Shown here: piece by piece, positions 2,384-8,443 of the stretch | How the letters are laid out: every line of letters starts with the position of its first letter | Numbering within the stretch: position 1 is the first letter of the stretch | Source of the DNA: a virus | Lineage: Duplodnaviria; Heunggongvirae; Uroviricota; Caudoviricetes | Virus record (IMG/VR): IMGVR_UViG_3300027887_000330 | DNA length: 14,686 bases | Strand: one strand, 5' to 3' | Notes under the pieces: generated by a model | Seen by the model: the letters and a program-made list of their open reading frames with translations, nothing else | Told to the model about the DNA's origin: nothing | Database searches by the model: none | Program-made: the position numbers and the translations under genes

Positions 2384-2572
2384 ATGGATGAACCACGGTG
2401 TGTAAAGTGTAAAAGTACCAATCTAGGTAGGTATGTAGAGAATGAAACTAACAACCCAGTGACTATCAAACTATTGTGCTTAGACTGCCTCACGGATTTT
2501 TTTGATCTTAGGGACAGTTTAACACTTAAGCTTCCTCCTCTGGTTGGCGGCGGGCCTGGGAGTGAAATATGA
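2384..2572 (+). CDS. Small zinc-ribbon protein (CxxC-x22-CxxC)
   Basis: CVKC...CLDC. RBS GGGAG/TAAGG upstream; stop coupled by ATGA to cysC. Confidence 0.65.
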   Translation: MDEPRCVKCKSTNLGRYVENETNNPVTIKLLCLDCLTDFFDLRDSLTLKLPPLVGGGPGSEI

Positions 2573-3123
2573 GAGTAGGGAACGTGATATGGCTATTTGG
2601 ACTTTCAGGTGCAGGTAAAACAACTTTAGGGGAGAGGCTTTCCAGAGAGCTGGGTTATCTGTTTTTAGACTCAGACGTAGTCAGAAGGGTATTAAGTATA
2701 CCAGAAAATTTTAGTGTACTAGGAAGATCAAACTATCAGGAGGTTCTACGGATGCATGTTAAAGAGATGCAGTGGCGGGGTAACGACTGCGTAGTAGCCT
2801 CCATTACTCCACTGCAAGAAATGAGAAATCTGAATAGAGTTATGCTGGATAATTACTTTGAAGTTTATCTCTCGTGTAGTATCCTAGAGTTATTTAATCG
2901 AGACCCAAAGGGACTTTATGCTAAGGCTAGATGCGGAGAGATCAAAGATTTTACTGGAGTAACTTCCCCATTTGAAGTTCCCAGAATAGACGCTGGTTTA
3001 GAGGAGGACTATCGAGTTCCAGCTACGGTCATTGAAACGGATAGCTTATCAGTAGAGGAATCTTATGGGAAACTCTGGCAGTGGGTAACACTTTGGGCTT
3101 TGAAAAAGGGAGTAGTGGGATGA
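2569..3123 (+). CDS. cysC: Adenylyl-sulfate (APS) kinase
   Basis: P-loop WLFGLSGAGKTT, LDSDVVR (LDGD-like), ASITP and the family signature RDPKGLYAKARCGEIKDFTGVTSPFEVP. Confidence 0.95.
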   Translation: MRVGNVIWLFGLSGAGKTTLGERLSRELGYLFLDSDVVRRVLSIPENFSVLGRSNYQEVLRMHVKEMQWRGNDCVVASITPLQEMRNLNRVMLDNYFEVYLSCSILELFNRDPKGLYAKARCGEIKDFTGVTSPFEVPRIDAGLEEDYRVPATVIETDSLSVEESYGKLWQWVTLWALKKGVVG

Positions 3124-7090: not shown

Positions 7091-7709
7091 TACCTGTAAA
7101 GAGATATCAGGCTACACGCTAGTAACCCCTGACAGACTGTGGAATCTGTGGTCTTGGGTAAACGACACCGTACAATCCCTTCCAGGCGAGATAGCTGAGT
7201 TAGGCACGTATAAAGGAGGCTCAGCTAGATTATTGTCTGAAGCGGTAGGGTATAGCAGGGCTTTACACGTTTTCGATACGTTCGAGGGTGTTCCTAAGGA
7301 GTTGGCAGACCCCGAGAAAGATTATGTTATGGGTGATCACCCCCATCTAAATATAAATTGGGCAGGGGGAGTTTATAGTGGGGGAGAGTGGGCGGCCTCC
7401 TATGAGGAGGTTAAGCACTTTCTTAGGAAGTGCCCAAATGTTGTGCTTCATAAGGGCCGAGTACCAGAGATCTTGGAAGAAGTAGAACCTATTACGTTCT
7501 GTTTTGTCTATCTAGATATGGATATAGGCCAACCTACCCTGGATGCCCTTCGATTTTTTTGGCCTCGCCTTGTTTCCAAAGGGGTAATCATAATAGATGA
7601 CTACGGTCACTTACAGGGGGTAACTGACGTCGTTGATAGCTTTGCAGCCGAAGAGGGGGTTCAGGTTATAAATACTTGCTATATGCAGTGCGCAATAAGG
7701 AGACCGTGA
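7074..7709 (+). CDS. TylF/MycF/NovP-family sugar O-methyltransferase, paralog 1
   Basis: LPGEIAELGTYKGGS, FDTFEG, LDMDI, FFWPRL..KGVIIIDDYG. GGAGG RBS favours ATG 7074 over 7071. Confidence 0.9.
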   Translation: MADFFDTCKEISGYTLVTPDRLWNLWSWVNDTVQSLPGEIAELGTYKGGSARLLSEAVGYSRALHVFDTFEGVPKELADPEKDYVMGDHPHLNINWAGGVYSGGEWAASYEEVKHFLRKCPNVVLHKGRVPEILEEVEPITFCFVYLDMDIGQPTLDALRFFWPRLVSKGVIIIDDYGHLQGVTDVVDSFAAEEGVQVINTCYMQCAIRRP

Positions 7710-8443
7710 TGTTGTTAAGGGCCCGGGGTCTGGTAATACCTTATGATTCCACTATTACTATAGAGGCCATAGTGGTGTTTTTGCATATAGAAAAGACGGC
7801 CGGTATGTCTATTAGGCGGCTGTTATTTGATATCTATGGAAGGGATGAGGTACTGGAGATATTGTACATGTCCTCTTCTTACCTGCAAGATATATCATTT
7901 AAATACCGAGCTATCTGTGGGCATTTCCATGCTAACTCTCATATCTATGACCAGCTTCGTAATCCATTTGTACATTTTACGGTTCTTCGCGACCCAGTAG
8001 AAAGAGTTTTATCGGAGTATTATTATTATAGAGAGCAGCCAAAGCATGCTAGGCTATATAATCTAGCTAATAAATATAGTTTAGAGGAACTGCTTAAGCA
8101 GGAGAGCAAAGATTTCTTTCCTATATTTAATTGGATGTGTTACCACCTGTCTGGCATATTACCTCAAACTTCTCCGCTTTCGTTAGATTGTGCCAAGCAT
8201 ACACTATGCCAGGATATGACGTTCTTTGGGTTTTCACATAACCTAAAAGAACTCGCTCAAATAGGACGAAGGCTATTGGGTTGGACGCCGGTTGAGATTC
8301 ACCATGTAAATCAGACTATGCATAAGATTAGGCCCTCAAACTACTTGGTTTCTTTAATAATAGAACAGAACCAACTAGATATAGAATTGTATAAATTCGC
8401 TAAAGAAATCTATAAAGAACGTCGATTAAATTGGCTGAGATAG
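7709..8443 (+). CDS. PAPS-dependent sulfotransferase (Sulfotransfer_2-like)
   Basis: 5'-PSB motif FLHIEKTAG, 3'-PB motif LRDPVERVLSEYYY, C-terminal NQLDIELY. Start placed at ATG 7709 (TGATG overlap, AAGGAG RBS); GTG 7706 is an alternative. Confidence 0.9.
   Translation: MLLRARGLVIPYDSTITIEAIVVFLHIEKTAGMSIRRLLFDIYGRDEVLEILYMSSSYLQDISFKYRAICGHFHANSHIYDQLRNPFVHFTVLRDPVERVLSEYYYYREQPKHARLYNLANKYSLEELLKQESKDFFPIFNWMCYHLSGILPQTSPLSLDCAKHTLCQDMTFFGFSHNLKELAQIGRRLLGWTPVEIHHVNQTMHKIRPSNYLVSLIIEQNQLDIELYKFAKEIYKERRLNWLR

Follow-up and report, generated by a model that had tools for sequence, protein, structure and literature searches.

A jumbo-phage glycan island with APS kinase and sulfotransferase genes that probably draws on host-made APS

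We analysed a 14,686-nt stretch of DNA (IMG/VR record IMGVR_UViG_3300027887_000330; "the window" below means this whole stretch) from an uncultured Caudoviricetes phage. Contigs overlapping the window came from wetland and soil metagenomes. The window carries cysC, the gene for adenosine 5'-phosphosulfate (APS) kinase, and, 4.6 kb away, a gene for a sulfotransferase predicted to use the product of that kinase, 3'-phosphoadenosine 5'-phosphosulfate (PAPS). Between the two lie a gene for a GT2-GT4 glycosyltransferase fusion, two methyltransferase genes and a GT17-like gene (Table 1). All genes from cysC to the sulfotransferase gene are on one strand, with stops and starts that overlap or almost touch. 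A first reading of the window from its letters alone (the original prediction) had named cysC and the sulfotransferase gene and described PAPS-binding motifs that looked intact; profile searches, residue alignment and predicted folds confirmed this.

The product of cysC matched the Pfam family APS_kinase (PF01583) with an E value of 3.2e-27, which passes the Pfam cut-off. APS kinases stood at the head of its 26 sequence hits in the PDB, and the top 50 Foldseek hits of its AlphaFold model (predicted local distance difference test score, pLDDT, 92) were all APS kinases or APS-kinase-like domains of sulfate-activating enzymes, with template modelling (TM) scores of at most 0.84. The residue roles in CysC of Mycobacterium tuberculosis were taken from PMC4373884. 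In the alignment with that enzyme (PDB 4bzq), K456, S457, D478, D480, R483, F492, R497, I523, S524 and K562 correspond to K17, T18, D34, D36, R39, F48, R53, I79, T80 and K114 of the phage protein, and all listed APS- and ATP-binding positions are kept. The P-loop (G11-T19, with K17 and T18 for Mg-ATP) is invariant or nearly so among the 35 members of the clade to which phage CysC belongs. D34 and D36, the latter equivalent to the catalytic base D480, are invariant in the clade; R39 and R53 (phosphosulfate), F48 (stacking), I79-T80-P81 (ISP loop) and K114 (lid) are also present. The sole motif change is LDSD in place of LDGD, and other clade members have Ala or Gly at the Gly position.

The 35 proteins of the clade share 43-93% identity and form a monophyletic group separate from the cellular enzymes, with a support of 95 in the Shimodaira-Hasegawa-like approximate likelihood ratio test (SH-aLRT). 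The cysC loci recovered by scanning metagenomes with the cysC alignment were mostly of low identity (32-43%) and fell outside the clade. The phage enzyme has the fold of bacterial CysC (PF01583; 4bzq, A. fulgidus 7yq1, Synechocystis 5cb6), with TM scores of about 0.8, and retains each of the ten positions that bind ligands or act in catalysis; as in the sulfation branch of bacterial CysC (PMC4373884), the kinase is paired with PAPS-dependent sulfotransferases. It differs from these enzymes in showing 30-42% identity to them, in belonging to a phage clade of its own and in having no ATP sulfurylase found on the same replicon. Phage CysC likely converts APS and ATP to PAPS; we grade this activity only as likely because LDSD replaces LDGD and the score against the curated profile TIGR00455 lies under the cut-off.

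The sulfotransferase matched Sulfotransfer_2 (E 1.6e-9; 38.7 bits against a cut-off of 22) and PHROG 3347. The 5'-phosphosulfate-binding (5'-PSB) motif reads FLHIEKTAG at residues 24-32 (H26-K29-T30-G32), and the 3'-phosphate-binding (3'-PB) motif LRDPxxRxxS at residues 93-102 (R94-S102). The best Foldseek matches of the model (pLDDT 90) were HS2ST and HS6ST, with an E value of 1e-8 and TM scores of 0.62-0.68. The protein thus resembles the heparan sulfate 2-O/6-O-sulfotransferases (4ndz, 3f5f, 5t03) in both motifs and in fold, but its identity to them is 16-18% and no membrane anchor was seen. It is a predicted PAPS-dependent sulfotransferase of the carbohydrate type.

Overlapping contigs stretched the window to 54.8 kb as DNA and to about 64 kb as gene lists. 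In the extended sequence the order is recA, dnaB, dnaG, ssb, dnaJ, ruvC, a glycan block of about 29 kb, polA, ribonucleotide reductase and thyX. The glycan block holds GT4 and GT2 glycosyltransferase genes, eight methyltransferase genes, three nucleotide-sugar epimerase genes, cysC and the sulfotransferase gene, together with GmhA-, HddA- and HddC-like genes. Three IMG/VR relatives with a cysC of the same clade, G001 (256 kb, 97% complete), G017 (211 kb, 86%) and G018 (545 kb, 100%), are syntenic with this phage across the replication and glycan blocks. Each exceeds 200 kb and has matches to terminase, portal and major head protein; the term jumbo phage refers to these relatives, the phage of the window being seen only outside the structural region. 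Since relatives that carry tailed-phage structural genes are syntenic with it, the window very probably lies within a conserved island for glycan building in a family of tailed jumbo phages. Among annotated phage records there was no close relative of cysC, the sulfotransferase or PolA, so no named family was assigned. Assignment to the Moraphages (PMC12619734) was weighed and rejected by description only: published accounts give them PolB and hosts in the Bacteroidota, whereas this family has PolA.

Sulfotransferase genes are a recurrent feature of the relatives, each of which has two or three. A Sulfotransfer_1 gene lies immediately 5' of cysC in G001 and G017, and a Sulfotransfer_2 gene immediately 3' of it in G017. 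An extra Sulfotransfer_2 gene is located outside the island in all three (G018:336888-337889; G017:71744-72721; G001:42224-43036). Those of G017 and G018 belong to the virion module, where a tape-measure-like open reading frame (ORF) of 13.6-14.7 thousand aa follows a few genes downstream. The PAPS motifs of the extra copies in G001 and G017 are altered, and these two proteins may be inactive or differently specialised. Each relative has a single giant ORF (G018:288395-332530, 14,711 aa; G017:74903-115753, 13,616 aa; G001:102050-138997, 12,315 aa), those of G017 and G018 being the ones just named at a tape-measure-like position.

The proteins of the window that were scanned against profiles included no product of sat, cysD, cysN or cysH, in agreement with the original prediction, and the result for ATP sulfurylase extends beyond the window. 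None of the three kinds sought (Sat, CysD/CysN and a small HxGH candidate) was found in the approximately 64 kb of this phage, and G001, G017 and G018 were without any match over the cut-off to PF01747, PF01507 (CysD and CysH) or TIGR02034. Two weak hits in G018, one Sat-like and one PAPS-reductase-like, were NadD and NadE. The small HxGH candidate is a nucleotidyltransferase with the motif GRWQPxHxGH. In unrelated loci of viruses (L025, L031, L034, L036 and L038; also L041, L045, L046, L050 and L135), its gene adjoins or lies near that of a kinase of the cysC type or a related one, or is fused to it; of 15 other viral loci, 5 had it next to cysC or close by. A hidden Markov model (HMM) built from these genes gave no match in this phage, G001, G017 or G018. 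A complete, unrelated 177-kb cysC phage, G005, is also without Sat, CysD and the small HxGH enzyme. An upstream CTP_transf_like gene (L001:3290-3874), the one gene of the HIGH family in the island, was tried as a candidate for ATP sulfurylase and rejected, being RfaE/TagD-like and absent from G001.

Given that the near-complete relatives encode no ATP sulfurylase, APS would come from the host, and the family very probably depends on host-made APS for PAPS. In this respect the island differs from complete PAPS-synthesis cassettes (Sat-CysC, CysDNC, NodPQ), which carry ATP sulfurylase on the replicon. In the rhizobial nodPQ-nodH sulfation cassette, nodPQ encodes both ATP sulfurylase and the kinase. 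The phage island resembles that cassette in that a dedicated source of PAPS accompanies a sulfotransferase for carbohydrates, and differs from it in having the kinase only.

Among 15 viral cysC records, 10 had a sulfotransferase hit (9 over the cut-off) and none had a PAPS reductase or CysD; cysH was not found in any of 17 viral cysC records searched. Because cysH is missing and sulfotransferase genes directly adjoin cysC on its 5' side in G001 and G017, PAPS most likely serves glycan sulfation rather than assimilation, as originally proposed. Published phage cysC genes (bioRxiv 10.1101/2021.01.05.425418, PMC10914622, PMC13172472, PMC13584214) resemble the present one in lying on large phage genomes and in forming a virus-specific clade, and two viral cysC have been reported to cluster with the metagenome-assembled genome (MAG) of a sulfate reducer (PMC13584214). 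In those papers they are assigned to sulfur cycling or to assimilatory sulfate reduction; in the present family, the presence of sulfotransferases and the lack of cysH point to glycan sulfation.

As for the acceptor, a glycan on virion proteins is the likeliest candidate, which we put at even odds. A hint at such a glycan is that G017 and G018 encode their extra sulfotransferase within the virion module. In giant viruses, the fibril glycan clusters include virus-encoded glycosyltransferases, nucleotide-sugar enzymes and methyltransferases. The phage island resembles virus-encoded virion glycosylation in its glycosyltransferases and, with respect to giant viruses, in its nucleotide-sugar enzymes and methyltransferases as well; unlike the mycobacteriophage and giant-virus systems, it is far larger and would include sulfation. 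Glycans of mycobacteriophage capsids and tail tubes are known, as cited in PMC12619734.

Three markers bear on the host. The small cysteine-rich ORF near the end of the window (the 8-Cys ORF) is a gene of the phage family, and the Atlas clusters closest to it occur most often in Thermodesulfobacteriota. Its HMM matched 46 of 301 Desulfobacterota genomes but none of 201 Bacillota and none of 251 Pseudomonadota genomes. Sixteen near-full-length matches were located in 15 Desulfobacterota genomes, the ten best of them in plainly cellular contexts, and all 15 genomes with the best homologues encode Sat and DsrA. Four phage rnhB genes grouped with Desulfobacterota in two quick trees (SH-aLRT 90-91). 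The nearest Atlas clusters of a PHP-GT4 gene of G001 are likewise commonest in Thermodesulfobacteriota. ClpP, NAD kinase and NadE, compared on five genomes, had their best hit in Desulfobacterota every time, with margins or samples too small to count, and no CRISPR arrays were found in the relatives. The three indirect markers, from two phages, provide moderate evidence for Desulfobacterota. The impression of Desulfobacterota-like genes in the original prediction was upheld for the 8-Cys ORF (46/301 against 0/452 controls) and moderately for rnhB by tree; by identity it failed for rnhB, which is uninformative as a host clue on that measure. We consider a Desulfobacterota host reasonably probable, and a dissimilatory sulfate reducer about as likely as not.

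Our best explanation of these data, to which we assign a probability of about 0.68, is a jumbo-phage glycan island in which host APS is converted to PAPS for glycan sulfation, in a probable Desulfobacterota host. It is built on the gene identities, the intact catalytic residues, the linkage to sulfotransferase genes and the finding that near-complete relatives have neither ATP sulfurylase nor cysH, and from these we infer enzyme activity, host identity and acceptor. During infection, the phage would make activated sugars by means of a heptose-type set (GmhA, kinase and nucleotidyltransferase) and a fucose-synthase-like set. Phage glycosyltransferases would join these sugars, and methyl groups and sulfate would decorate the glycan. 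Phage CysC would phosphorylate APS from the host pool to PAPS, which one or more phage sulfotransferases would use on a sugar hydroxyl. The host would be a member of the Desulfobacterota, likely with Sat and Dsr and a high APS flux; such a flux would explain how the family does without ATP sulfurylase.

Several points weigh against this explanation. The cysC product scores 96.4 bits against TIGR00455, below the curated cut-off of 138.7. The phage of the window is known from only about 55 kb of DNA or about 64 kb of gene lists; because most of its genome is unseen, it is only from the relatives that an ATP sulfurylase in the rest of it can be excluded. The RfaE/TagD-type nucleotidyltransferase gene of the island, found 6 kb upstream here and also in G017 and G018, encodes an enzyme that might in principle be able to adenylate sulfate. 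All host markers are of an indirect kind and come from limited taxon samples: the 8-Cys family was sampled in three phyla only (Desulfobacterota, Bacillota and Pseudomonadota), support in the rnhB trees is below 95 with taxa picked as top hits, and the identity of rnhB to Desulfobacterota (59-61%) is not separated from that to Bacillota (57-59%). In G018, ClpP and NAD kinase have hardly any discriminating power, and dsrC was not found in the relatives.

Two competing explanations differ from ours mainly in the host. In the strong form of the original prediction, the host is a dissimilatory sulfate reducer that lacks APS kinase; the phage supplies exactly that step and drains respiratory APS. 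This would agree with the presence of Sat and DsrA in each of the 15 genomes whose 8-Cys homologues are the best, with the lack of any cysC match in 143 of the 301 Desulfobacterota genomes, including three of those 15 (G170, G177 and G317), and with the lack of three ATP sulfurylase types in this family when several other cysC viruses carry one. However, APS kinase over the cut-off is encoded in 145 of the 301 genomes and in 12 of the 15, and the misses fall in incomplete MAGs. With about half of the phylum and most marker genomes encoding the enzyme, the claim of gap-filling is weak, and we consider it distinctly unlikely; for the same reason phage CysC is more likely a booster or insurance under phage control. 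Six Desulfobacterota genomes (G042, G084, G121, G154, G276 and G304) were seen to have at least two APS kinase genes beside a dissimilatory Sat/Dsr set. The same sulfation may also take place in a host that is not a sulfate reducer, such as a syntrophic or metal-reducing member of the Desulfobacterota or a bacterium of another phylum, with APS provided by assimilatory CysDN or Sat. Any sulfate-assimilating cell makes APS (an established pathway, PMC4373884), so lack of ATP sulfurylase is not diagnostic of the host, and the step from a missing ATP sulfurylase to a sulfate reducer in the original prediction is not supported: G005 lacks all the types sought, and 62 freshwater cysC phages of many taxa have been published, with transcripts in oxic water (PMC10914622). 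The indirect nature of the host markers leaves further room for such a host. Their agreement on Desulfobacterota, and the co-occurrence of the full-length 8-Cys family with Sat and DsrA in every one of the 15 genomes tested, speak against it, and we hold it possible at somewhat less than even odds.

Other alternatives concern the source of APS or the fate of PAPS. The phage might make its own APS by an unrecognised enzyme, for example the RfaE/TagD-like nucleotidyltransferase, which belongs to the HIGH family and is encoded in the same island of this phage, G017 and G018. The catalytic domain of Sat is a member of the same superfamily, and other viral loci pair a different small nucleotidyltransferase with cysC, as judged by co-location. 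We find this very unlikely, as the enzyme matches RfaE, TagD and ethanolamine-phosphate cytidylyltransferases and not the small HxGH HMM, and its gene is missing from G001, which keeps cysC and two sulfotransferase genes. That cysC is an assimilatory auxiliary metabolic gene boosting cysteine synthesis in the host, the sulfotransferase being incidental, is how phage cysC has been read in the literature (PMC10914622; Kieft et al., bioRxiv 10.1101/2021.01.05.425418). The absence of cysH from the 17 viral records and the position of cysC, within a glycan island and adjoining sulfotransferase genes in relatives, render this highly improbable here. Finally, the sulfated, methylated sugar could be placed on phage DNA or on a surface polymer of the host instead of on virion proteins. 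Replication genes flank the island, and there are reports of phage glycosyltransferases that alter DNA or host serotype and a proposal of nucleotide sulfation by phages (PMC12619734; PMC10829341). Since the virion module of G017 and G018 holds the extra sulfotransferase gene, and the Pfam lists of the island show no base-activating enzyme, flippase or polymerase (no search was aimed at these), we regard this placement as somewhat unlikely.

The remaining features of the window are mostly further genes of the glycan island (Table 1). Its first 308 nt belong to a low-depth bacterial contig mis-joined inside a phage methyltransferase gene via about 21 shared bases at 309-329; three runs carry on with phage sequence at this junction and not with the bacterial fragment. 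This phage has two RNase HII paralogues, one in the window and one at L274:13058-13786, and so do G001 and G018. Homing endonuclease genes of the LAGLIDADG and HNH types are scattered through the glycan island (L022:688-17350; L023:8225-16033; L001:2335-3309). G018 has a NAD synthesis block (G018:492625-500160) comprising NadD, glutamine-dependent NadE and an NAD-kinase-like gene, and 40 tRNAs, one of which (G018:47126-47202) was assigned a CUA anticodon ('Pyl') by ARAGORN and may be an amber suppressor or a true pyrrolysine tRNA.

Table 1. Features of the 14,686-nt window, in order of position
Position	Strand	Feature	Basis
1..308	-	Foreign bacterial acyl-CoA-synthetase-like fragment; mis-assembly, not phage	Junction comparison across runs
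629..1360	+	Methyltransf_24 methyltransferase	Pfam
1601..2380	+	Methyltransf_24-like methyltransferase, just under cut-off; paralogue of 629-1360	Pfam
2569..3123	+	APS kinase CysC, 184 aa	Pfam, PDB hits, alignment, AlphaFold/Foldseek
3120..5549	+	GT2-GT4 two-domain glycosyltransferase, 809 aa; start overlaps cysC stop	Profile matches
5556..6158	+	S-adenosylmethionine-dependent methyltransferase (Methyltransf_24)	Pfam
6158..7090	+	310-aa protein, weakly GT17-like (E 0.007, below cut-off); G018 orthologue 73% identical	
7071..7709	+	TylF-type sugar O-methyltransferase; stop overlaps sulfotransferase start	Pfam
7709..8443	+	Predicted sulfotransferase, Sulfotransfer_2, HS2ST/HS6ST-like fold, 244 aa	Pfam, PHROG, motifs, model
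8453..9037	+	Second TylF-type O-methyltransferase	Pfam
9046..10014	+	NAD-dependent nucleotide-sugar epimerase/dehydratase	Profile matches
10928..11968	+	GDP-fucose-synthase-like epimerase/reductase	NF047922, E 3e-57, below cut-off
12979..13833	+	Third NAD-dependent epimerase/reductase	Profile match
13766..14095	+	Small Cys-rich protein, 8 invariant Cys, kept in phage family	HMM; host marker
14025..14654	+	RNase HII (rnhB), kept in phage family	Profile match, trees

Both enzyme types and phage cysC are already known. What is new is that all three types of ATP sulfurylase are missing family-wide, that there is evidence on the host, and that such hosts, contrary to the original prediction, usually possess a cysC of their own. 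Viral cysC is widely taken as evidence for phage-driven assimilatory sulfur cycling; that it occurs with sulfotransferases in 10 of 15 viral records, and never with cysH, suggests that molecules made by the phage are sulfated. Sulfate on a phage glycan would be a new kind of modification that is open to testing. Should the host prove to be a sulfate reducer, this family would rank with the largest phages assigned to Desulfobacterota. The boldest version, in which phages of 200-550 kb, forming an undescribed family, infect sulfate-respiring Desulfobacterota, tap respiratory APS and coat their virions with a glycan that is sulfated and multiply O-methylated, is rather unlikely as a whole; if true, it would tie phage glycosylation directly to the energy metabolism of the host and make phage cysC a virion-modification gene rather than an auxiliary gene of sulfur assimilation.

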